A stretch of 64,000 bases of DNA. Origin: Patescibacteria group bacterium. GTDB taxonomy: Bacteria > Patescibacteriota > Minisyncoccia > Phycocordibacterales > JAACPR01. Below, in pieces: positions 7,678-61,166 of this stretch. The notes below the pieces were generated by a model that saw nothing but the letters and a program-made list of their open reading frames with translations, was not told the DNA's origin and made no database searches. The stretch lies in the NCBI GenBank assembly GCA_022711495.1, contig JAKLEX010000001.1, positions 225,389 through 289,388 of the forward strand, in the 5' to 3' direction. How positions within the stretch are numbered: the first letter of the stretch is position 1; each line of letters begins with the position of its first letter. The position numbers were made by a program, and so were the translations under genes.

Positions 7678-9036
7678 ATGAACCGTTTTTATAAATTTGG
7701 CTTGATGTTCGTGTTGGCCGCGGCTCTGTTTTTTTCTGCCGCCAGATCAGTCCAAGCCTTGACAATGTGTAGTTTCACTCGAGATTTAACTGTTGGATCA
7801 AGTGGTGAAGATGTTCGCTGTCTGCAGCAATATCTGAATGCGGTTGGTTACACGATTGCTAACACGGGCGCTGGTTCGCTAGGCCAAGAGACAACTTATT
7901 TTGGAAATCTAACGGCACAAGCCGTGGCCAAATGGCAAGCAGGCAACGACATATCGCCGACGGCTGGATATTTTGGCACAATCTCTCGTGCCAGATACGC
8001 GGAGATTTTCCAAAGAGCGAATGATCCGGCCGGAGCCGACGCGCGGGCGGCTATAGCCGAGGCTTCTTCTTATATCGCTGAGGCACGTCGAGCCTTTAAT
8101 CAAGCGGATGGAGATGGGGCCGACCGAACAGAAGATATAATCAAGGCGACGTTTAGTGACTTATCTATTGCTTCCGATTTTTATCAAGATGGTGAATATA
8201 ACAAAGCCGAGGACTCTGCCTTAAGGGCTGTTAGAGGAGCCAAGTATGCTCTCGGGGCTTTAGATGACTCCAAAGATTATGAAGATAATAGGAGCGGGGC
8301 CAAAGAGGTTATTCAGAACACTGAAGACGCAATTAAAGACGCCGAAGATGCTATTGAAGATGCTGAAGAGGCCACAGATGAGTCTGAAGCAGACGATTAT
8401 GACATAGACGGGGCAAAAGATATTTTGGAAGAAGCCCAAGATCTATTGGAAGAATCTCAAGATCTATTAAACGAAGCCGAAGAAGCTTTTGACGATAGGG
8501 ATTATGATGAGGCGATTGACTCGGCCGAAGATGCACTAGCCTTAGCGACAGACGCTCAAGAAATTGCAGAAGATGCCGCAGATATTGCTGACGGGGATAT
8601 TGAATACGAAGACTATGATTCGGATTTTATGGTCCATGATAGTGATGATGACGACGAAAATGCCGTTGATCAAAACGACGAAGATGACGAAGATGATGAT
8701 GAGGACGACGATTCCGCCACGACAGACGATCAAATAACCGGACAGGCAACCTCAACAGTGGATACGTATAATAAAATAGTTCCAACACTGGTTCAAACTT
8801 ATGGCGGTAGTGGCGTGAGCCAAAGTAGCACCGCTAGTGAAAGCGGCACACAAAGTGGCATTGACGCGGGAAGTTCTAGTAATGACTCTGATGAGACAGA
8901 AGAAACTCCAGAGGAAGAGGCCGCTCAAATAAATGACTCCATAATTTATTCTGGTAATTCTGCCGGCGATTGGTATAACAACGGCATCCTTAATCCTGGG
9001 GGCTGTTCTGCGGGGGAATGTTCGTGGGGGACATAA
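7678..9036 (+). CDS. Secreted peptidoglycan-binding-domain protein with polyacidic repeat region (family member 1)
   Basis: Signal peptide. CSFTRDLTVGSSGEDVRCLQQYLNAVGY...YFG...AVAKWQ matches the PG_binding_1 pattern. Long D/E/A-rich repeats (FDDRDYDEAIDSAEDA etc.). Confidence 0.7.
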   Translation: MNRFYKFGLMFVLAAALFFSAARSVQALTMCSFTRDLTVGSSGEDVRCLQQYLNAVGYTIANTGAGSLGQETTYFGNLTAQAVAKWQAGNDISPTAGYFGTISRARYAEIFQRANDPAGADARAAIAEASSYIAEARRAFNQADGDGADRTEDIIKATFSDLSIASDFYQDGEYNKAEDSALRAVRGAKYALGALDDSKDYEDNRSGAKEVIQNTEDAIKDAEDAIEDAEEATDESEADDYDIDGAKDILEEAQDLLEESQDLLNEAEEAFDDRDYDEAIDSAEDALALATDAQEIAEDAADIADGDIEYEDYDSDFMVHDSDDDDENAVDQNDEDDEDDDEDDDSATTDDQITGQATSTVDTYNKIVPTLVQTYGGSGVSQSSTASESGTQSGIDAGSSSNDSDETEETPEEEAAQINDSIIYSGNSAGDWYNNGILNPGGCSAGECSWGT

Positions 9037-9109
9037 TTTTCTCTATTCTTATCTGCATGTTAAAATAATCATGCTTATCAGAAGCATTATTGGTTAATTT
9101 ATTTCAATT

Positions 9110-10315
9110 ATGAATAATCAAAGAAAAATAGTTTGGTTACTGACATTATTAGTTCTGCTTGTTGTTGGTGCGAATATTGCCGAAGCCGCCACGACTTGTA
9201 CTTTTACAAGAGACCTGGCTTTAGGTGATAACGGCGAAGACGTTCGTTGCTTGCAACAGTATTTAAATAGTGCCGGCTACACAATCGCAGCATCGGGCGT
9301 CGGTTCGCCTGGAAACGAAACAAGCTTGTTTAGAACTTTGACGGAGCAAGCGGTGATTAGGTGGCAAACAGCCAACGGTATTTCACCGGCTTCCGGATAC
9401 TTTGGTCCAAAGTCACAAGCAAAATATAATGCACTAATTTCTGGATCAAGTTCTGGCTCAAGTTCCAGCTCATCCGGCAGCTCGTCATCCAGTTCTTCCA
9501 GTAGCTCGTCCGGTTCATCCAGCTCCAGCTCTTCGTCAAGTAGCTCATCAGCTAACTCGGAGAGAAGCGAGGCCGAAGATACAATCTTAGAGGCTGTAGA
9601 CGCCATTTATGATGCCGAAGGGCAAATAGAAGATAGCGATGAAGATGAAGACGATATTGAGGATGCCGAAGAGATGTTAAAAGATGCTCGTGAAAATCTT
9701 TATAATGCCATTGAGGCGTATTTTGACGAAGATTACGATGATGCCATAGATTCAGCCGACGACGCCATTTCAGACGCCGAAGATGCTTATGAACAAGCCG
9801 GCGGGGAATCAGAAGAGGACGAAGCCGAGCAAGCCATTGACGACGCCGAGGACGCCTTAGACGCCGCCGAAGCCGAAATTGAGGAAGCGGACGACGATGG
9901 TGAGGAAGTCGGCGAGGCCGAAGATCTTTTTGACGAAGCTCAAGACTTGTTAGACGAAGCTGAAGAGGCTTTTGATGATGAGGATTATGACGAGGCTATT
10001 GATTTAGCCGAAGAGGCCGAAGATACGGCGGACGAAGCCGTCGACGCTATCGGTGAAGAAGGCGACGATGAAGAATCAGACGCCGAAGAAGCTATTGAAG
10101 ACGCCGAAGATGCCATTGATGCCGCCGAAGAGGCCATTGATGAATCAGACGCGGATGCTGATGACATAGAGGAGGCCGAAGATCTTGTTGACGAGGCTAA
10201 CGATTTGCTAGACGAAGCCGAAGAAGCCTTTGACGACGAAGATTACGACGATGCCATTGACGCTGCTGAAGAAGCTCAAGAAAAAGCCGAAGAAGCCGAA
10301 GATTTGGTTGATTAG
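9110..10315 (+). CDS. Secreted peptidoglycan-binding-domain protein with poly-Ser tract and polyacidic repeats (family member 2)
   Basis: Same N-domain (CTFTRDLALGDNGEDVRCLQQYLNSAGY). Poly-Ser run of about 35 aa. Repeated acidic modules EEAEDLxDEAxDLLDEAEEAFDDEDYDEAID. Confidence 0.7.
   Translation: MNNQRKIVWLLTLLVLLVVGANIAEAATTCTFTRDLALGDNGEDVRCLQQYLNSAGYTIAASGVGSPGNETSLFRTLTEQAVIRWQTANGISPASGYFGPKSQAKYNALISGSSSGSSSSSSGSSSSSSSSSSSGSSSSSSSSSSSSANSERSEAEDTILEAVDAIYDAEGQIEDSDEDEDDIEDAEEMLKDARENLYNAIEAYFDEDYDDAIDSADDAISDAEDAYEQAGGESEEDEAEQAIDDAEDALDAAEAEIEEADDDGEEVGEAEDLFDEAQDLLDEAEEAFDDEDYDEAIDLAEEAEDTADEAVDAIGEEGDDEESDAEEAIEDAEDAIDAAEEAIDESDADADDIEEAEDLVDEANDLLDEAEEAFDDEDYDDAIDAAEEAQEKAEEAEDLVD
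9443..9552 (+). repeat. Poly-serine coding simple-sequence tract (AGY/TCN codon repeats)
   Basis: About 110 nt encoding SSGSSSSSSGSSSSSSSSSSSGSSSSSSSSSSSS. Confidence 0.8.
10061..10315 (+). repeat. 255-bp direct repeat copy 1 (3' end of paralog CDS), ~99% identical to 13128-13382
   Basis: Base-by-base comparison shows only 2 mismatches over 255 nt, including the stop codon. Confidence 0.9.
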
Positions 10316-10352
10316 TCTCGGCGAGTTTCTCTAAGCATTATTGGTTTAATAA

Positions 10353-10386
10353 AACCACCAGAAAATATGGTGGTTTTATTTTTTTA
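10353..10386 (+). terminator. Rho-independent terminator
   Basis: AACCACCA-gaaaata-TGGTGGTT hairpin followed by a T-run. Confidence 0.6.
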
Positions 10387-10448
10387 TCGGAATCTGTCTA
10401 TGTTATACTGTGTGTTAGTTAAAAACACATTAACTTAATTTAATCTTT

Positions 10449-13382
10449 ATGAAATATCTTAGAAAATTAATCCAGGCGTCTGTATTATTAGTATTTTTTG
10501 TCTCTAATATTCGTGTTGAGGCAGTATCGATTTGTACTTTTACCAGAGATCTGACAGTCGGATCGGTCGGCGAAGACGTGCGCTGCTTGCAACAATATTT
10601 AAATAGCACCGGTTACACCATTACCGAATCAAATGAGGGCTCACTAGGACAAGAGACCACATATTTTGGAACTTTAACCGCGCAAGCTTTAGCAAGATGG
10701 CAGTCAAACAACGGAGTATCGCCGGCCACCGGATATTTCGGTCCAGTTTCAAGAGCGAAATATAGCTCCTTCACTTCCGGAGTCTCTAATGGCGCCGGAG
10801 GAACTGTGAGCGGACAAAGAGAAGCCGCCTCTTCTATAAATGAGGCCGTTTATACCATAAGCGAAGTTTATGATAAGGTCAGAAATTCAAAAAATAGCAA
10901 AGCTGTAGGACTCTGGGAAGATGCCGACGAATTGTTGGATGATGCGGAGGCAGCTTATAACAAAAAGCAATATGATCTAGCTTTAGATTTTGCGGAGGCG
11001 GCAATCGAAAAAGCCGATGAGGCAGAATCGGCTCTTAGTAGTAAGACTGCTTCAACTAGCGAAGCTAAATCTGAAGCCAGAGACGCTATCGCAGACGCTG
11101 AAAAAGCCATTGACGACGCCAAAGATGAGATTGACGAAGCTGATGACGATGGCGATGACGTTGATGAAGCTGAAAGTATCTTAGACGACGCCAGGGAAGC
11201 TTTAAATGACGCCGAGGAAGCCTACGACGATAAAGATTATGATGAAGCGATAGAATTGGCTGAAGAGGCTCAAGATGCGGCAGACGAGGCCGTTGATGCT
11301 ATCGGCGAAGAACCTGAAGATGACGATGATGAAGATGATGAAGATGATGAACAGATCTCGGTTAAACTTCTGGCTAACGGAAAGTCTGGAACGGTTAAAA
11401 CCAATTCAGACAGTGTCGCACTAACATGGACGTCTAATGCTAAATATTGCGAAGCTTCGTCGTCATATTCCGCCGCCGGCAGCTCATCTAGTTTGGCAAA
11501 TAAGACAATAAGCATCTTGCCAATCGGTGATTCCAATACTGCTGGAGTGGGCAATCCAACCAACTGCACGAAAAATTGCCTTGGTTATAGGAAAAGCTTA
11601 AAAGATCTTCTAACCGCGGCCAATATAAAGACCGACTTTGTTGGTTCAAAATCTGACGGTAATTTCACCGACAATCAACACGAGGGCTGGTCTGGCGAAG
11701 GTATTTCTAAAATTCAAAGCCGAATATCTGGCGGCATTCTTGGAACTCTCAAACCAGATATCGCCCTGCTTCTTATTGGAAGCAATGACATGTGGATTTC
11801 TCTTTCTGATCGTAGCCCGGTCTCTGATAACAAGGCTAACTACTGGGTATCGCAACTTGGAAAATTGCTAGATGCTATGTATGGCAAAAAAAGTGACATG
11901 CATGTTATTGTCGCCAAACCGGCGACACCTAGGAGCGCCTCTGGACCTCTGGCCATTTATCGCGATGGTATTGATACTTTGGTTAAACAGAAAAAAACCG
12001 ATGGACAAAAAATCTCCTCAGTTGATTTGATGGGAGCGAAAAATGATGGCACCCATTATACCTCTACCGGTTTTGAGACTGTGGCCAATTTGTGGGCCGC
12101 TGAAATCAAGAGCATTGTTTCCGGTAGTTCTGCGATATATACCGCGCCAAGTTGGTCGGGCCAGAAGAGTGCAAAGGGCAGTAAATCTTTTTCTTTAGCT
12201 CCGGGCTCGGAAACGACTTTCAGTTTAAGGTGCGGGGATTCTTCCTCGTCTTTGACGGCTAGGAGTAATGTTACTGTTAAAGTCAGCTCAAGCGCCAGTT
12301 CATCGTCCGGCGGCGACTCCGGTGATGACGCCGTTGACCTTTATGAAGGCATGATTGAACAGTTGGTTGAGACCATGGGTGAAGGATTTGATGAAGTTGG
12401 TATACCGCAACCTTTTGCTTGTCCTTTGAAGACTGAATCTGATGATGACCGACTAGTTAATTTCTCTACAGTTAAGGGATTGCTTGGTAAATCTTCCGGA
12501 AGTACTCCTGCTGGATTCTCGTCCAATGGTCAAGCGGACTACCAAGTAAGTATTCCTGCCGGCACGTATAAAGTGTCCATGACAACCTATGACAATCACT
12601 CGGAACACGGCGGTCAGGGCCAGCGCAATGAGAAAGTCTATCTTGAGTTATATGATGGTGCCGATGGAGACATGATTGCGAAGACCGACTCTACGGATGA
12701 TATTTCAGAAAGTTCTAATAGTGTTACCACGATCATCGCTGACGCTTTGGAAGTAGACAGTCAAGTCAAAATGTTAAGAACTATTCACGCGGCGTATCCG
12801 AATGGTTCATCGGCCGAAAGCGTATTTCCAATCTGTACGTTGTTTGAAAGCACAGACGAAGACCCGGAGGATGACGAAGAAAAGGAGGCCGAAGACGCTG
12901 TTGATAGAGCCATAGAACTGATAGACGAAGCTAAAGACGCGATTGACGACTCCGACGCCTCGGACAGGAAAATTGAATTGGCTGAAGATATTATTGATGA
13001 CGCGGAAGATCTTGTTGACGATGCAACGGAGGCCATTGATGATGAGGATTATGACGAAGCGATAGAATTGGCCGAAGAGGCTCAAGATTTTGCTAAGGAG
13101 GCGGCCGATATCGTCGGTGAGAAAATCGGCGACGATGAAGAATCAGACGCCGAAGAAGCTATTGAAGACGCCGAAGATGCCATTGATGCCGCCGAAGAGG
13201 CCATTGATGAATCAGACGCGGATGCTGATGACATAGAGGAGGCCGAAGATCTTGTTGACGAGGCTAACGATTTGCTAGACGAAGCCGAAGAAGCCTTTGA
13301 CGACGAAGATTACGACGATGCCATTGACGCTGCTGAAGAAGCTCAAGAAAAAGCCGAAGAAGCGGAAGAGTTGGTTGATTAG
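10449..13382 (+). CDS. Large secreted protein: PG-binding domain + acidic repeats + SGNH/GDSL hydrolase domain + second acidic repeat array (family member 3)
   Basis: Signal peptide and CTFTRDLTVGSVGEDVRCLQQYLNSTGY. SGNH blocks GDSNTAG (block I), EGWSG (II), GSNDMW (III), DGTHYT (V). Acidic modules on both sides. Confidence 0.7.
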   Translation: MKYLRKLIQASVLLVFFVSNIRVEAVSICTFTRDLTVGSVGEDVRCLQQYLNSTGYTITESNEGSLGQETTYFGTLTAQALARWQSNNGVSPATGYFGPVSRAKYSSFTSGVSNGAGGTVSGQREAASSINEAVYTISEVYDKVRNSKNSKAVGLWEDADELLDDAEAAYNKKQYDLALDFAEAAIEKADEAESALSSKTASTSEAKSEARDAIADAEKAIDDAKDEIDEADDDGDDVDEAESILDDAREALNDAEEAYDDKDYDEAIELAEEAQDAADEAVDAIGEEPEDDDDEDDEDDEQISVKLLANGKSGTVKTNSDSVALTWTSNAKYCEASSSYSAAGSSSSLANKTISILPIGDSNTAGVGNPTNCTKNCLGYRKSLKDLLTAANIKTDFVGSKSDGNFTDNQHEGWSGEGISKIQSRISGGILGTLKPDIALLLIGSNDMWISLSDRSPVSDNKANYWVSQLGKLLDAMYGKKSDMHVIVAKPATPRSASGPLAIYRDGIDTLVKQKKTDGQKISSVDLMGAKNDGTHYTSTGFETVANLWAAEIKSIVSGSSAIYTAPSWSGQKSAKGSKSFSLAPGSETTFSLRCGDSSSSLTARSNVTVKVSSSASSSSGGDSGDDAVDLYEGMIEQLVETMGEGFDEVGIPQPFACPLKTESDDDRLVNFSTVKGLLGKSSGSTPAGFSSNGQADYQVSIPAGTYKVSMTTYDNHSEHGGQGQRNEKVYLELYDGADGDMIAKTDSTDDISESSNSVTTIIADALEVDSQVKMLRTIHAAYPNGSSAESVFPICTLFESTDEDPEDDEEKEAEDAVDRAIELIDEAKDAIDDSDASDRKIELAEDIIDDAEDLVDDATEAIDDEDYDEAIELAEEAQDFAKEAADIVGEKIGDDEESDAEEAIEDAEDAIDAAEEAIDESDADADDIEEAEDLVDEANDLLDEAEEAFDDEDYDDAIDAAEEAQEKAEEAEELVD
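13128..13382 (+). repeat. 255-bp direct repeat copy 2
   Basis: See 10061-10315. Confidence 0.9.
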
Positions 13383-25443: not shown

Positions 25444-25462
25444 CGTGCTATAATTGATTCCG

Positions 25463-26215
25463 ATGGATATTTTATCGGAGTACAAAAGAAGAAATGAGAA
25501 GTGGAATTATGGGGGACCAAATTGGAAACTTAGCCGGTCAAAAATAGATCTTTTTAATGAATGCCCCAGATGTTTCTATTTGGACAATAAATTAGGAATT
25601 CGCCGACCCTCCATGCCGCCTTTTAATTTAAACGTCGCGGTTGACGCTTTGTTGAAAAAGGAATTTGACATTTACCGCGCCCAAAAGAAGCCGCATCCTT
25701 TGATGAAAAAATATAAGATTGAGGCCATTCCGTTTCAGCATAAGGAACTGGAAAAATGGCGAGATAATTTTGTTGGACTGCAATATCTTCACGAACCGAC
25801 TGGCATGACGATCTCCGGCGCCATTGATGATGTCTGGATAAATTCTCGGGGTGAGCTATATGTCGTTGATTATAAAGCGACGAGCAAAGATGAAGAGATA
25901 ACTTTAGATGATAAATGGAAGGATGGCTACAAGCGACAGATAGAAGTCTATCAATGGCTTTTCCGGCAGTGCGGTTTTGAGGTCTCTGATACTGGCTACT
26001 TCGTTTATGCTAACGGTCTCAAAGATAAGAAATCTTTTGATAACAAACTGGAATTTGATTTGACGATCTTGGATCACGTCGGCAACACGGAGTGGGTTGA
26101 ACCGACGATCTTTAAGATAAAGGAGGTCCTTGACGGCGAAGAATTGCCAAATCCTGGCAAGGGTTGTGAGCATTGCGCTAGCCATAAATTCCGGTCGGAA
26201 GTCGAAAATACATAA
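25463..26215 (+). CDS. PD-(D/E)XK nuclease family protein, Cas4/RecB-nuclease-like with 4 Cys (possible Fe-S)
   Basis: GAIDDVW...ELYVVDYKAT matches nuclease motifs II/III. Cys pairs CPRC (N-term) and CEHC (C-term). The ORF-track start 25454 is a TTG inside the -10 box. ATG at 25463. Confidence 0.5.
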   Translation: MDILSEYKRRNEKWNYGGPNWKLSRSKIDLFNECPRCFYLDNKLGIRRPSMPPFNLNVAVDALLKKEFDIYRAQKKPHPLMKKYKIEAIPFQHKELEKWRDNFVGLQYLHEPTGMTISGAIDDVWINSRGELYVVDYKATSKDEEITLDDKWKDGYKRQIEVYQWLFRQCGFEVSDTGYFVYANGLKDKKSFDNKLEFDLTILDHVGNTEWVEPTIFKIKEVLDGEELPNPGKGCEHCASHKFRSEVENT

Positions 26216-46760: not shown

Positions 46761-48563
46761 TTAGTAGGTTGTTGTTGAATCTTTAACTAGCTCCCAAGCT
46801 CCTCCTGGCCCAATCCACATCCAGTGGTATCCGACTGGGTGATTTGGATATTTTCTCTCCATTCTTTCACAGCTCTTCATACCATAGAGATGTGAATGGC
46901 TAGGAATTACATCTCCCCATGAATACTGGGTTGGTCTAACTACGCCTTCCTTTGCAGGATAATCAGTTCCGCCGGCAGGGTTTCTTATGCCTGGGCAGAT
47001 CTTGTATTGTATTTGCTGACCGTTATATGTTGTATAACCAATTTCTCCACTTGCATCAGTATTTTGCATGTAGTAACCAGGAATCGTAGATATACCACTT
47101 TGACCCATAGTTGCCACTAACTCTTCTACTGATTGATTATATGCGCCAACCGCTCCTTGAGTGAAGTTTTGAGAGAATTGAAGCAGACAGTCATTGACGG
47201 TGCTTCCTTTTTCCCAACAATCTCGCCAACAATCACAGTTAATTCTGCCGGCATCACAAACGCCATTTGTTGAGTGGGTCATGGTGTAACCAGCCTCTGG
47301 AAAAGCCTTGTGAATACATATATCATTTACGACATGTTGTCTTGCCCCATCTATAAATAAGTAGTTTGTCGTCGTTGCTGGAGTAGTTGATGCGGTAGAA
47401 GAGCCAATATTCTCAACGACCTCAATAGCCTCTTCTGCCAATCCTTCCGCTTCTACGGCATAGTCAAGAGCATCGTCGTAATCTTCATCGTCAAACTCTT
47501 CTTCAGCCGTATCCAGTTGTTCTTTTGCTGAATCTACCAAGCCGTTTGCTTCGTCAATGGCCTCTTCCGCCCCATCTTTAACATCGTCGTATTCGCCATC
47601 CTCAAAATCTTGCTCGGCTTCTTCTACGACACCTTCTGCCTCTTCGATGGCGTCTTCGGCGTCGTTAATAGCCTCTTCGGCGTCATTTTCATCGGCATCA
47701 ACTTCTTCAGCTAAATCTTCCGCTTCCTCGGCCTTTTTTTGAGCTTCTTCTGCCGAATCAATGGCCTCATCATAATCCTCATCATCAACAGACTCTTCAG
47801 CATCCTCTAACAAATCTTTAGCTTCATCGACAAGCTCCTCGGCATCTTCAATATCGTTATCATCAGCATCCGATACGTCTATAGCATCTTCAGCGTCATC
47901 TATAGCATCTTCAGCGTCTTTAATTGCTTCTTCTGCACCGTCTTCGTCTTCGTCGTAAGAAGCTTTTGATTTTTTCTTTAACGCGTCTTCAGCCTCTTCT
48001 GCCTTTTCCACGGCATCAACTCCAAGTGTTAGGGCTTTGTTATATTGACCTTTGTTATAAGCATCCTCCGCGTCGTCCAGTATTTTCTCGGCGGCTTCCC
48101 ATAATTTTGTGGCAGAACTATTCTTTGCTTTTTTAACTTTATCGTAAACTTCACTTACGGTATAGATTGCCTCGTTTATGGAAGAGGCGGCCTCTCTTTG
48201 CTGGCCCTCCACGCCACCGACATTGCCGGGATTTCCGGTAACCAATGTATTATATTTCGCGATAGACTTTGCTCCGAAATAGCCCGCAGCTGGAGTGACT
48301 CCATTGGCCGCTTGCCATCTCTGAACTGCACCCTGGGTTGCGTTACCGAAAAAGATTGTTTCATTTCCAGCTGAACCAACGCCAGATTGCGCCACCTTGT
48401 AACTGGTGCTGTTTAAGTACTGCTGCAGACATCGCACGTCTTCACCGCTTACTCCTAGATTTAGGTCTCGGGTGAAAGAACAAGCCGCATCAGCCCTGCT
48501 GATTCCGACAAAAAGCAGAACCAACACAGGCAACAACCAGCTCATTTTTCTTAAATAATTCAT
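46761..48563 (-). CDS. Secreted PG-binding-domain protein with polyacidic repeats and Cys-rich C-terminal domain (family member 4)
   Basis: Signal peptide. CSFTRDLNLGVSGEDVRCLQQYLNSTSY. Conserved REAASSINEA...YNKGQY linker shared with the 10449 gene. Acidic modules. About 200-aa C-terminal domain with 10 Cys. Confidence 0.7.
   Translation of the reverse strand: MNYLRKMSWLLPVLVLLFVGISRADAACSFTRDLNLGVSGEDVRCLQQYLNSTSYKVAQSGVGSAGNETIFFGNATQGAVQRWQAANGVTPAAGYFGAKSIAKYNTLVTGNPGNVGGVEGQQREAASSINEAIYTVSEVYDKVKKAKNSSATKLWEAAEKILDDAEDAYNKGQYNKALTLGVDAVEKAEEAEDALKKKSKASYDEDEDGAEEAIKDAEDAIDDAEDAIDVSDADDNDIEDAEELVDEAKDLLEDAEESVDDEDYDEAIDSAEEAQKKAEEAEDLAEEVDADENDAEEAINDAEDAIEEAEGVVEEAEQDFEDGEYDDVKDGAEEAIDEANGLVDSAKEQLDTAEEEFDDEDYDDALDYAVEAEGLAEEAIEVVENIGSSTASTTPATTTNYLFIDGARQHVVNDICIHKAFPEAGYTMTHSTNGVCDAGRINCDCWRDCWEKGSTVNDCLLQFSQNFTQGAVGAYNQSVEELVATMGQSGISTIPGYYMQNTDASGEIGYTTYNGQQIQYKICPGIRNPAGGTDYPAKEGVVRPTQYSWGDVIPSHSHLYGMKSCERMERKYPNHPVGYHWMWIGPGGAWELVKDSTTTY
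47878..47919 (-). repeat. Perfect 2x21-nt tandem duplication inside acidic repeat coding region
   Basis: TCTATAGCATCTTCAGCGTC[A/T] twice, encoding DAEDAID twice. Confidence 0.8.
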
Positions 48564-54338: not shown

Positions 54339-54478
54339 GCTCGCTGAAGGCCTGCTCAGCCATTCAGCAACGCAACCGCCGCCTTTTCATTCCGTTTGCA
54401 TTGTAGCAGATTTGCGGGCCCATGTCAATATCTAATATCGCGTAAATCAGTTCAACTCTGTTGTATACTATATCCGTC

Positions 54479-55549
54479 ATGAGAATTGAAGAACAGACTA
54501 AACTTGATTATTCAGATGTTTTGATTCGTCCGAAACGCAGCACTTTGACCTCAAGAAAAGAAGTCGTCCTGGATAGAACTTTTACTTTCTATCATTCTCC
54601 TAAAACCTGGACGGGAATCCCGATTATGTCGGCCAACATGGCGACTTGCGGCACTTTTGGCATGGCTAAAATTTTGGCGCCACTGAAAATTATCACGACC
54701 TTCCATAAATACTATTCAGTTTCTGATTTTGAAAAGTTTTTTCAGACTTTTAATAATCCGGATTATGTTTGCTACACGCTTGGAATTCGCGATGAAGACG
54801 TGGCGAAGATTCAGGAAATGCAGAAAAAAGGTTTGATGAAAAACTTTTCTTTTATTTGTATTGATGTCCCAAACGGCTATTTGCAAAGGTTCTTGGAGAG
54901 CATTCGGCTTATCCGCCAAATGTTTCCGGAGCACATCTTGATTGCGGGCAATGTTGTGACCAACGAGATGACCGAAGAAATAATTTTGGCCGGAGCTGAC
55001 ATCGTCAAAATTGGCATCGGCCCGGGTTCGGCTTGCACGACCAGACGGATGACCGGCGTGGGCTATCCGCAGCTGTCGGCAGTTATTGAATGCGCCGACG
55101 CGGCTCACGGAATTGCCAACGAAAGGGGAGTCGGACGAATCATCGCCGACGGCGGTCAACAATATATTTCTGATATCGCCAAAGCCTTTTGTGCCGGAGC
55201 GGATTTTAATATGTGTGGTTCACTTTTCTCTGGTTTTGATCAAAGTGATGGCAAATTGATAGAAAAAGATGGCAAAAAGTTTAAGGAATATTTTGGCTCC
55301 TCTTCAAATAAAGCTTTGGAAGAATTGTATGGCAAAAAAGACGACCATCGGGCCAGCGAAGGCCGATACGCCTTAATTCCATACAAAGGCGATATAAATA
55401 ATTTTTTGCAAGATTTATTCGGCTCTCTACGAAGCACGGGAACTTACATCGGCGCGCGTCAACTTCGCGAGTTTCCCAAAAGAGCGACTTTTGTGAAAGT
55501 GAACAGACAACTCACGAACTATTTGGAGCCCTATGATACGGGGGAGTAG
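54479..55549 (+). CDS. guaC: GMP reductase
   Basis: MRIEEQTKLDYSDVLIRPKRSTL... and GIGPGSACTTRRMTGVGYPQLSAVIECADAA (IMPDH/GMPR barrel without CBS insert). About 355 aa. TGTTGTATACT box overlaps the ORF-track start 54461. Confidence 0.85.
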   Translation: MRIEEQTKLDYSDVLIRPKRSTLTSRKEVVLDRTFTFYHSPKTWTGIPIMSANMATCGTFGMAKILAPLKIITTFHKYYSVSDFEKFFQTFNNPDYVCYTLGIRDEDVAKIQEMQKKGLMKNFSFICIDVPNGYLQRFLESIRLIRQMFPEHILIAGNVVTNEMTEEIILAGADIVKIGIGPGSACTTRRMTGVGYPQLSAVIECADAAHGIANERGVGRIIADGGQQYISDIAKAFCAGADFNMCGSLFSGFDQSDGKLIEKDGKKFKEYFGSSSNKALEELYGKKDDHRASEGRYALIPYKGDINNFLQDLFGSLRSTGTYIGARQLREFPKRATFVKVNRQLTNYLEPYDTGE

Positions 55550-59624: not shown

Positions 59625-60407
59625 TCACGTCCCGGCAATTACCTTGGCATTTATGTCGGCCAGTTTCTTTAGGGCGCCGTCGACACCGTTTACCACGAAC
59701 ACGTGTTGGTTACCGACCTCGCTCTTTGTTCGCCAAAGAGTTGAGTGGCTGACCTTCTTGTTCATGATGCACCAATTGCACGACGGGGGAGCTTTCTCCC
59801 GATTCCCCTTACCGCCAAAGACCAACTCCAACTGGAATTCACCGGCTTTTTGTCTGACGGCCTCCTCTTGTTTCGGCAGGAATTCAAGAAGAAGAACTCG
59901 CGGGTGTCGTGTGCGGCCAGATGACTCGCGGATCTTTTCCGCGGACCCATTAGTCGTCGGTTCCGTCGCTAGCGGCTTCGGAACTGCTCCCAAAACCTCG
60001 GACGAAGCTACCGCCAGTTTTTCCAGAATCTTGGGAATCGCGCCTACGACTGGGGCCAGCCGGCGAGCCACAATAATCAACAGCTCTTCGGTCGTGATGC
60101 TCGCCAGAATCTCTTCTCGCGGAGTTTCAACCCGGACTTCTTTTTCGATCTGAATTTCGACGGGGTGGGACAAGCTCTCTAGAAACTCGATTCGAGCTTC
60201 TACGAATCTCTGCGTAAGTTCAGAACTTATACCCCTCCGGCCCGTGATCGTCCGTTGCCGGTGTGCGGGAAGGGTTTTCTGCGCTTCGGCGACGAAACTC
60301 CAAAGGTTACTCGTATCTTCCGTGTAGAGTCGCAAAGCCTCTTCGGCGACCTTATGAATTTCTTCGTCGGTCCAAAAGACTCGCGACTTTCTTTTATCTG
60401 CACTCAT
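59625..60407 (-). CDS. Hypothetical protein, GC-rich (260 aa, re-assigned start)
   Basis: Shine-Dalgarno AGGAGAGAG before ATG 60407. The ORF-track start 60464 is the ATG inside the TAATGTC -10 box. About 58% GC. Confidence 0.45.
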   Translation of the reverse strand: MSADKRKSRVFWTDEEIHKVAEEALRLYTEDTSNLWSFVAEAQKTLPAHRQRTITGRRGISSELTQRFVEARIEFLESLSHPVEIQIEKEVRVETPREEILASITTEELLIIVARRLAPVVGAIPKILEKLAVASSEVLGAVPKPLATEPTTNGSAEKIRESSGRTRHPRVLLLEFLPKQEEAVRQKAGEFQLELVFGGKGNREKAPPSCNWCIMNKKVSHSTLWRTKSEVGNQHVFVVNGVDGALKKLADINAKVIAGT

Positions 60408-60460
60408 GAGCTCTCTCCTGGTTGTTTGTATTTGATCTGTCTGTGTCCAATCTGCCCAGG

Positions 60461-60489
60461 ACATTACAACAACTTGATGGGGAAGTCAA
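60461..60489 (-). promoter_or_regulatory. TTGACT-TCCCCATCAA-N-TAATGT promoter
   Basis: Reverse strand TTGACTTCCCCATCAAGTTGTTGTAATGT. Confidence 0.5.
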
Positions 60490-60514
60490 ATAAAAAACCA
60501 CCCATCTATGTGGG

Positions 60515-60708
60515 TGGCGGGGCTGCCGGGATTTGAACCCGGGACCTCCTCCGTATCACGGAAGCACTCTAACCGCGCCGTACAGCATTTTCCCCGCCGT
60601 GCCCTCGAAAGGACTCTTTTGCAGAAGATTGTTCGCAACGTTACCGGTCATATCGCGGGTCTTGCTGCAATTTGGGACAAACACCGTCCGACTCTGAGCT
60701 ACAGCCCC
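60515..60708 (-). tRNA. tRNA-Ile(GAU)-like gene with ~115-nt insertion in the D-loop region (intron-containing or disrupted), CCA encoded
   Basis: Reverse strand 5' GGGGCUG-UA-GCUC-AG... pairs perfectly with 3' ...CAGCCCC-G-CCA. T arm CCGGG-UUCAAAU-CCCGG. Anticodon arm CUUCC-GUGAUAC-GGAGG (anticodon GAU). Variable loop AGGUC. D-stem 3' half GAGU. Total 194 nt instead of about 77. Confidence 0.55.
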
Positions 60709-60791
60709 TCCATACCTTCTGAAGTGGAAGCCTATATCATCTTAGATTTTGTGTCAACTCGTGCTCTATCGGCTAATTAACGGAGTATAAA

Positions 60792-61166
60792 CTATTCAAA
60801 ATTTAACTTTTTTAACGCTTCAGCTGTTTGGCCGACAATATCGGCCCGATGTCTTTCTATAAAATCAGACGTTAGGTCGTCTTGTGTCAGACCCTCGTCT
60901 TTTAAAATTTTTTCTATAACTCTTGCCACTTCAACTCGGTAAAATCGAGCCAGACAATTCTGTGTTCCAATCCACTGGGTCAATCTTTTATCCTGTTCTG
61001 GTGATCCATGAGGGTTCGTCTGAAGCGAGTCTCCCACTCCATAATAGGCATCTGCGACAGCAAATTGGATTTTCAAGGCAGACTTTGAAATTTTATCTAG
61101 AGATCCGCCCAACCGCGCAAGCCTCACTTCTTCGTCCAGATTTTCTTGTGGCATTTTTTCTATCAT
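60792..61166 (-). CDS. Hypothetical protein
   Basis: 124-aa ORF with TATAAT-type -10 upstream. Confidence 0.4.
   Translation of the reverse strand: MIEKMPQENLDEEVRLARLGGSLDKISKSALKIQFAVADAYYGVGDSLQTNPHGSPEQDKRLTQWIGTQNCLARFYRVEVARVIEKILKDEGLTQDDLTSDFIERHRADIVGQTAEALKKLNFE

Follow-up and report, generated by a model that had tools for sequence, protein, structure and literature searches.

We identified an interrupted tRNA-type gene in a patescibacterial genome (NCBI GenBank assembly GCA_022711495.1, contig JAKLEX010000001.1, positions 225,389 to 289,388; this whole 64,000-nt stretch is hereafter the window). The gene occupies 194 nt of the minus strand, from 60708 down to 60515, and contains every element of a tRNA. 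Its D-loop is split by a 117-nt insert whose deletion yields a cloverleaf with the anticodon GAU. By analogy with rRNA genes, we tentatively favour the view that the insert is similar to an intervening sequence (IVS) and lies in an expressed accessory tRNA gene, where it would either stay in place as an extra arm or be removed by RNase III.

A tRNA core split in the D-loop

An initial annotation of this DNA proposed a tRNA-Ile(GAU)-like gene with an insertion of ~115 nt in the D-loop, and all of the tRNA elements that it quoted on the minus strand are present (Table 1). The acceptor stem joins GGGGCUG (RNA positions 1-7) to CAGCCCC (184-190) through seven of seven Watson-Crick pairs and is followed by G73 and an encoded CCA. 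The D stem joins GCUC (10-13) to GAGU (140-143), its halves lying 126 nt apart rather than the 140 nt first given. An anticodon arm (CUUCC-GUGAUAC-GGAGG, RNA 145-161, anticodon GAU), the variable loop AGGUC and a T arm (CCGGG-UUCAAAU-CCCGG, RNA 167-183) complete a cloverleaf in which 21 of 21 stem pairs are standard. The tertiary-contact nucleotides of class I tRNAs are also complete (U8-A14, G15-C48, G18G19 with U55C56, U54-A58, G26 and A44), and the two exons contain the further core features G53-C61, U33 and a purine at position 37. Because the acceptor, anticodon and T arms and these conserved nucleotides are intact, the tRNA core is able to fold.

Standard tools, which recognise canonical elongator tRNAs as contiguous cloverleaves of ~73-93 nt, do not find this gene. 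ARAGORN with default settings reported no tRNAs in the window, and Rfam at gathering thresholds gave no match to the gene. The intron-model search suggested in the initial annotation does call an interrupted tRNA at this site, but as a tRNA-Gly(tcc) with a 115-nt anticodon-loop intron, i(30,115). We rejected this call, whose D stem measures 3 bp, whose anticodon stem is rich in G.U pairs and whose variable region is too long; the drawing is poor because the program imposes an anticodon-loop intron model. A misleading tRNA-Gly(tcc) call of this kind could enter automated annotations.

Systematic in-silico deletion of D-loop blocks leads ARAGORN to tRNA-Ile(gat), and deletion of RNA 17-133 gives a clean 77-nt cloverleaf of that type; the initial annotation was right to see a tRNA-type gene interrupted in the D-loop. 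Positions 2-77 of the excised 77-mer align across the junction, at 83% identity and E = 2e-13, with phage genes annotated as tRNAs, an end-to-end match to real tRNAs.

The silence of the default tRNA and RNA-family tools is what could be cited for a chance resemblance or a chimeric assembly. Against both stand the alignment across the junction and the uniqueness of the site: a gapped tRNA pattern has a single match in the window and none in 100 shuffles, and a scan of both window strands for T arms whose acceptor strand finds a complement no more than 700 nt away returned this site only. At least five independent assemblies from different samples (JGI, ENA and Logan) are 100% identical over 9-12 kb, the longest contig reaching ~553 kb, and proteins of the locus are also on record from an NCBI metagenome-assembled genome. 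With the exact agreement among JGI, ENA, Logan and NCBI assemblies from different samples added to the other evidence, these explanations are effectively refuted. The arrangement is neither a chance resemblance nor an assembly artefact.

Boundaries and predicted fold of the insert

The insert boundaries, A16/G17 and G133/C134, are unique and cannot slide because the flanking bases differ (A16 versus G133, G17 versus C134). The D-loop insert measures 117 nt, which corrects the earlier size of ~115 nt. After exact deletion the exon junction reads ...GCUCAGA followed by CGGUUAGAG..., and the resulting D arm, GCUCAGACGGUUAGAGU, is the same as in the tRNA-Asp of Erwinia phage Kwan. The restored D-loop also matches the one in a fecal-phage tRNA-Ile(GAU). 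Group I introns follow a U at the end of the 5' exon (U.G pair in P1) and themselves end in G; here, at the boundary that restores a canonical D-loop, A16 closes the 5' exon and G133 the insert, and an alternative 115-nt excision after U18 leaves an 11-nt D-loop. A partial copy of the tRNA 5' end, which the initial annotation had seen in the insert, reduces to a single repeated 6-mer, GCUGUA; there are four repeated 6-mers in the RNA, and by our own estimate ~4 are expected by chance.

The insert is rich in GC (54.7%, versus a window mean of 43.1%), a level reached by 6% of 117-nt windows, and contains no credible open reading frame (ORF). Single-sequence prediction folds it, alone or in context, as a closed three-way-junction domain. 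Its closing helix consists of 17 bp, 5 of which are G.U, with pair probabilities of 1.00 for P1, 0.94 for P2 and 0.60 for P3. Folding energies are -38.9 kcal/mol for the sense strand and -28.4 kcal/mol for the antisense strand, which is 10.5 kcal/mol worse and does not form the closing helix because 5 of the 17 pairs are G.U. A closing helix confined to the sense strand favours, in these models, a structure formed by the RNA of the tRNA-sense strand rather than inverted repeats in the DNA. A fold that combines the cloverleaf with the insert domain lies within 2.6 kcal/mol of the unconstrained minimum free energy (MFE) structure.

The gene has the signals of an independent transcription unit. 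A TTGACA hexamer and a TGaTATAGG element lie upstream, separated by a 15-nt spacer; our promoter scanner requires a spacer of 16-18 nt and left this promoter-like site uncalled for that reason. Downstream, a terminator stem of 8 pairs (60518-60497), followed by the T run TTTTTTATTT, abuts the CCA.

Table 1. Features of the interrupted tRNA-type gene and its flanks. Coordinates are those of the window; RNA position p corresponds to window coordinate 60709-p.
Feature	RNA positions	Window coordinates	Strand	Description
-35-like hexamer TTGACA		60752..60757	-	Upstream of the RNA gene; read from the sequence
Extended -10-like TGaTATAGG		60731..60739	-	~22 nt upstream of G1; read from the sequence, putative promoter element
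5' exon	1-16	60693..60708	-	Acceptor GGGGCUG 60702-60708, U8 A9, D-stem GCUC 60696-60699, A14 G15 A16
Insert, 117 nt	17-133	60576..60692	-	In the D-loop, between tRNA positions 16 and 17
Closing helix, 5' strand	17-35	60674..60692	-	P1 4 bp, G.A, P2 9 bp, G.A, P3 4 bp; in MFE and centroid folds
Hairpin A	39-90	60619..60670	-	Long arm of the three-way junction; outer helix P = 0.89; single-sequence prediction
Hairpin B	95-108	60601..60614	-	5-bp stem, UUCG loop; P = 0.96; single-sequence prediction
Closing helix, 3' strand	114-132	60577..60595	-	Pairs with RNA 17-35
3' exon	134-194	60515..60575	-	Starts C17 G18 G19 U U A21; D-stem GAGU 60566-60569
Anticodon arm (3' exon)	145-161	60548-60564	-	Anticodon GAU 60555-60557; G32/C38 in the loop GUGAUAC
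Variable loop			-	AGGUC
T arm	167-183	60526-60542	-	
Acceptor 3' strand	184-190	60519-60525	-	
G73		60518	-	
CCA		60515-60517	-	
Intrinsic terminator		60491..60518	-	Hairpin GCCACCCA-CAUAGA-UGGGUGGU; 5' arm takes in G73 and CCA; U run after

Known introns, ribozymes and mobile elements

We compared the insert with the classes of sequence known to interrupt RNA genes. At E<=10 over 60400-60850, Rfam returned only generic acceptor and T-arm matches (tmRNA, mascRNA and SpF41) and no family of group I or group II introns or of self-cleaving ribozymes. We rejected a group I intron (RF00028, with a P3-P9 catalytic core and at least ~180 nt) on this result and on length, since bacterial tRNA group I introns measure 184-894 bp; the initial annotation had likewise judged the insert too short for this class. 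A group II intron (domain V, RF00029) is several hundred nucleotides long and was rejected on the same two grounds, and the self-cleaving ribozymes rejected for want of a match comprise hammerhead, twister, pistol, hatchet, HDV (hepatitis delta virus) and hairpin. The archaeal-type intron that had also been suggested did not survive folding: the predicted junction consists of a 4-bp helix, a 1x1 G.A and a 9-bp helix, with no 3-nt bulges and no bulge-helix-bulge (BHB) motif. Neither a splicing endonuclease (EndA) nor a ligase is found among the window proteins (64 kb plus flanks of the ~553-kb genome were read). The insert is most probably neither a self-splicing intron nor an archaeal-type intron.

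Archaeal and red-algal tRNA introns occupy non-canonical positions that include the D-loop, and depend on the BHB motif and a splicing endonuclease. The insert is like them in its D-loop position and in the cloverleaf that its removal restores, and unlike them in that no BHB can be drawn and the host is bacterial. In bacteria, group I introns of tRNA genes interrupt the anticodon loop, and the sole D-loop case in a survey of bacterial tRNA introns belongs to group II and comes from a Bacillota genome (PMC13011429). The Patescibacteria tRNA group I introns of that survey, which lie at 33/34 to 36/37 (notably 35/36) and self-splice in vitro, resemble the present case, as they interrupt a tRNA gene, are missed by standard tools and leave a canonical tRNA on removal. 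Unlike them, the insert has 117 nt, lies in the D-loop and gives no group I signal.

A true intron of a new kind, excised as 117 nt with ligation of the exons to a 77-nt tRNA by an unrecognised small ribozyme or by host enzymes such as an endonuclease and an RtcB-type ligase, is very unlikely. Its appeal lies in the canonical tRNA restored by exact removal, in the G at the last insert position, as in group I introns, and in the unusual richness of Patescibacteria in tRNA and rRNA introns, with interrupted tRNA genes that standard tools miss (PMC13011429). It is opposed by the lack of any group I, group II or self-cleaving ribozyme signal and of a BHB, by a length well below the 184 nt of the smallest bacterial tRNA group I intron, and by a 5' exon that ends in A, not U, at the sole boundary restoring a canonical D-loop. 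No homologous intron was found anywhere we searched. We also know of no tRNA splicing endonuclease in bacteria.

Mobile DNA gives no better match. We rejected a miniature inverted-repeat transposable element or other small transposon, as the window, like the 0.9 Mb of DNA examined, contains one copy of the insert and there is no target-site duplication. The pairing of its ends needs 5 G.U pairs and is absent on the other strand, unlike DNA-level terminal inverted repeats, and the insert has no match in phage or plasmid collections. An integration scar, a further suggestion of the initial annotation, was dismissed because the 12-kb locus contains no att-like repeats of this RNA or of tRNA-Asn(GUU) and no integrase is found among the neighbours. 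This tRNA-Asn(GUU) is intact, with an encoded CCA, and lies on the same strand at ~66116-66190, 5.4 kb off and just past the window end; its sequence is unrelated.

Similarity of the 5' end to GGGGCUG...UCGAC GGG had prompted a reading of the gene as transfer-messenger RNA (tmRNA). As in tmRNA and other RNAs with a tRNA-like module, a large internal domain sits between the parts of a frame made of acceptor stem, T arm and CCA, and tmRNA is the best Rfam clan match. We rejected this class, as the score is 16.9 bits versus a gathering score of 47 and the ARAGORN tmRNA search was negative. Unlike tmRNA, the gene has a complete anticodon arm and a G-C pair at position 3-70 (no G3.U70), and lacks a tag reading frame and pseudoknots.

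Mixed identity of the tRNA body

Nothing beyond the anticodon appears to mark this gene as a tRNA-Ile. The E. coli IleRS identity set comprises the anticodon GAU, A37, A38, A73, C4-G69, U12-A23 and C29-G41. GAU, A37 and U12-A23 are present here and G73, C38, G4-C69 and U29-A41 deviate, a comparison to be read with the caveat that Patescibacteria rules may differ. The initial label of tRNA-Ile(GAU) holds for the anticodon and is otherwise nominal, most of the identity elements being absent. The acceptor stem with G73 and the D stem are identical to those of a metagenomic tRNA-Asp(GUC). The anticodon arm is near-identical to the arm CUUCC-GUGGCAC-GGAAG of tRNA-Ala(GGC) genes, which have the same G32/C38 loop frame, and also resembles a phage tRNA-Ile stem. 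The gene body thus appears to be a mosaic of mixed Asp, Ala and Ile character, as like tRNA-Asp and tRNA-Ala as tRNA-Ile. A Watson-Crick pair is possible between G32 and C38, an atypical arrangement where the anticodon is weak and A/U-rich.

The exons are closest to phage tRNA genes (Erwinia phage Kwan tRNA-Asp, 83%; fecal-phage tRNA-Ile, 84% over 63 nt), and the 3' exon by itself matches annotated phage tRNA-Asp and tRNA-Ile genes. Unusual anticodon loops are known in phage-borne tRNAs, where they counter anticodon nucleases (PMC10264068). The gene shares with these phage and mobile-element tRNAs its exon similarity, its non-standard anticodon loop and its location in accessory DNA. It differs from them in that they are contiguous, and no D-loop-interrupted relative was found in the phage and viral collections searched.

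These features raise the alternative of a tRNA-scaffolded non-coding RNA, in which the insert would be functional, for example in binding protein or RNA, and the tRNA frame would provide folding, stability and processing; the RNA might also be a decoy for tRNA-targeting nucleases. tRNA modules are used in this way by tmRNA, by the YrlA Y-RNA-like RNAs and by viral tRNA-like structures. The promoter-like site and terminator point to an independent transcription unit, the combination of an intact core with non-standard identity and a G32-C38 loop argues against ordinary decoding, and the insert is a GC-enriched, strand-specific closed domain. A decoy role would also accord with the phage tRNAs whose altered anticodon loops counter anticodon nucleases (PMC10264068). 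A useful RNA is nevertheless expected to recur, and this one has zero homologues in the collections searched. The matches to tmRNA and other Rfam families cover the generic acceptor and T arm only, and no partner protein can be identified: the sole homologue of a 260-aa neighbour (see below) occurs without such an RNA, and the model of this neighbour is generically flavodoxin-like. We therefore regard a scaffolded non-coding RNA as distinctly unlikely.

Genomic context and search for relatives

The window is an ordinary stretch of a Candidatus Paceibacterota chromosome, with genes for LysRS, Mur ligases, PGI, a P-type ATPase, phosphoketolase, acetate kinase and DUF5671. The RNA gene lies inside a run of small same-strand ORFs at ~55.6-62.9 kb. 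None of the ORFs in this run has a Pfam, PHROG or PADLOC assignment; searches of ten of them against PHROGs and PADLOC gave nothing meaningful. The upstream 124-aa ORF matches itself alone among 1.84 billion representatives. The downstream 260-aa ORF has one homologue (38% identity by BLASTP, 42% in a MAFFT alignment), which adjoins a DinB-like gene and has no room for such an RNA beside it. An AlphaFold model of the 260-aa protein (pLDDT 57.7) is confident only for a generic flavodoxin-like domain, and Foldseek returned uninformative matches, all to generic flavodoxin or receiver folds.

In sister species whose GMP reductases are 79-88% identical to that of the window, the whole ORFan block is absent, as judged from synteny via IMPDH. 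The interrupted tRNA gene is treated as accessory for this reason, with the caveat that tRNA genes attract islands and a native origin is possible. The initial annotation had also placed the gene in an accessory stretch, though at its edge rather than, as we find, inside the block.

We searched several collections for related RNAs and found no homologue in any of them. The gapped D-loop pattern and a 3'-half pattern both gave 0 matches in GTDB (185,579 species), recovering neither an orthologue nor the source genome, and no species representative in GTDB has a 3' half with this anticodon loop and the core features. Searches of viral contigs with the exon, the gapped architecture, two insert 20-mers and a junction pattern returned nothing, or only chance and tRNA-array matches. 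A metagenome scan for G32/C38 tRNA 3' halves found at least 119 loci, the source contig not being among the matches listed; 16 of those listed lack a contiguous tRNA, and none of these is D-loop-interrupted. One of the 16 (L057) was set aside as an ordinary tRNA-Ala.

Three unrelated metagenome contigs among these 16 matches share an arrangement of their own (L024:614-1082, L025:8316-8695 and L054:2082-2473). In each, a complete tRNA (Val-TAC, Ala-CGC and Gly-TCC, respectively) is followed by an ORF of ~250 nt with GIY-YIG-like motifs. The ORF is in turn followed by a second copy of the tRNA 3' portion, in which T arm and acceptor are unchanged and another hairpin, with G32/C38, takes the place of the anticodon arm. 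The arrangement suggests a small GIY-YIG element whose targets are tRNA genes and which copies the 3' part of them.

A 90-aa ORF at 60508-60780 on the plus strand, antisense to the RNA gene, is annotated as protein-coding in one or more public assemblies (L003 among them) and has a protein cluster of its own (P0124). This ORF is almost certainly spurious, the usual tRNA-antisense artefact called on top of a structured RNA. Used as a proxy for homologous RNA loci in protein databases, it matches itself only.

A pseudogene is a possible explanation of this gene, nearly as likely as an IVS-like insertion in an expressed gene. An accessory tRNA gene from mobile DNA would have been killed by a one-off 117-bp insertion; it would persist because it is recent and neutral, and would have no functional product. 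The surrounding ORFan block without Pfam, PHROG or PADLOC matches, its absence from sister species and the strict ORFan upstream are consistent with such a history, as are the lack of an orthologue among the 185,579 GTDB species, the abnormal anticodon loop with inconsistent identity elements, and an insert fold that is statistically ordinary. The state of the gene argues otherwise. All 21 stem pairs and every universally conserved tRNA nucleotide are intact, as is the terminator. The insertion falls exactly in the one part of the D-loop that is variable and exposed, and its ends close through strand-specific G.U pairs, neither of which a random insertion of DNA need do. It also lacks a target-site duplication and occurs once in 0.9 Mb.

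Other features of the window touch on its history and gene content. In the sister species, GMP reductase (IMPDH family) follows a cluster of phosphoketolase, acetate kinase and ABC-transporter genes, either directly (L009-L011) or within ~1.4-3.8 kb (L008, L012/L013). Here it lies at 54461-55549, by the ORFan block and ~17.5 kb further on; because of this displacement, the region must have been rearranged in this lineage. Four paralogous large proteins, encoded at 7678-13382 (+) and 46761-48563 (-), have an N-terminal peptidoglycan-binding domain, and three of them also contain DUF4398. Two of the four have weak HEPN-like matches and one has a GDSL lipase domain; together they look like an expanded secreted or cell-wall protein family. 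A 253-aa protein of the PD-(D/E)XK nuclease superfamily (25454-26215, plus strand) is encoded among housekeeping genes (NUDIX, PGI), with no evident link to the RNA gene.

A possible IVS-like insertion in a tRNA-type gene

The explanation that we tentatively prefer involves an accessory, stand-alone tRNA-type gene with a GAU anticodon, a body of the phage or mobile-DNA kind and a short IVS between D-loop nucleotides 16 and 17. Transcription would run from the gene's own promoter to the terminator abutting the CCA and yield a precursor of ~194 nt plus a leader. The tRNA core would fold, and the insert, as modelled from one sequence, would fold on itself into a closed domain projecting from the solvent-exposed, variable part of the D-loop. 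Its predicted closing duplex, 17 bp or ~19 stacked positions with two G.A mismatches, is a substrate of the type cut by RNase III. Because the duplex suits this enzyme, the likeliest fate of the insert would be retention, or excision without religation. After excision, the acceptor and D stems would keep the two pieces of the tRNA together, much as the pieces of fragmented 23S rRNA are kept.

The closest precedent for the D-loop insert is provided by short non-intron insertions in rRNA genes of the same phylum. rRNA genes of the candidate phyla radiation (CPR) frequently contain ORF-less insertions of less than 200 bp that belong to neither intron class, lie at either the top or the base of a stem-loop and are presumed IVSs processed by RNase III, with the fragments left unreligated (PMC11270868). 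The insert agrees with these in phylum, length (<200 bp), absence of an ORF and of group I or II signatures, position at the stem-loop tip of a structural RNA, and long basal duplex. It departs from them in its host, which is a tRNA-type gene and not a 16S or 23S rRNA gene, and in a 17-bp closing duplex with two G.A mismatches that opens to a three-way junction and not a simple hairpin; cutting by RNase III is proposed here by analogy with the rRNA cases.

An IVS-like insertion is further suggested by the exact 117-nt deletion, which restores the D arm of a real tRNA, and by the pairing of the insert ends at probabilities of 0.94-1.00. Several points weigh against it. We know of no IVS described in any tRNA, and a tRNA nicked in the D-loop, or one with a 117-nt arm at the elbow, may be unfit for translation. 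The G32-C38 loop and mixed identity elements would be just as compatible with a gene in decay. The folding energy is unexceptional relative to shuffles (z = -1.15 for the insert and -1.56 for the whole RNA), and the D stem has a low probability in unconstrained folding. No RNA-processing enzyme is encoded nearby, and the case is a single orphan sequence, identical in all assemblies. Overall, the observation made in the initial annotation is confirmed and its interpretation is partly supported.

A stronger version of this explanation, that a bacterial tRNA is matured by removal of a D-loop IVS, is unlikely. Removal would proceed either by RNase III excision to a functional two-piece tRNA or by protein-dependent cutting and ligation. 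If true, it would constitute a route of tRNA processing not described in bacteria. If instead the locus is a dead accessory gene, it is merely a curiosity.

The finding bears on how tRNA genes are counted, as ARAGORN and Rfam in their default modes do not see genes of this kind, and counts of tRNA genes in reduced genomes may be wrong. The interrupted bacterial tRNA genes described so far contain self-splicing introns, almost always of group I and in the anticodon loop. If the present insert is non-catalytic, bacteria would either tolerate or process an rRNA-style IVS in a tRNA, fragmented or arm-bearing, or splice tRNA without known ribozymes. If maturation by removal of a D-loop IVS holds true, the CPR habit of interrupting structural RNA genes would extend from rRNA and from anticodon-loop group I introns to a new class of insertion and a new position.

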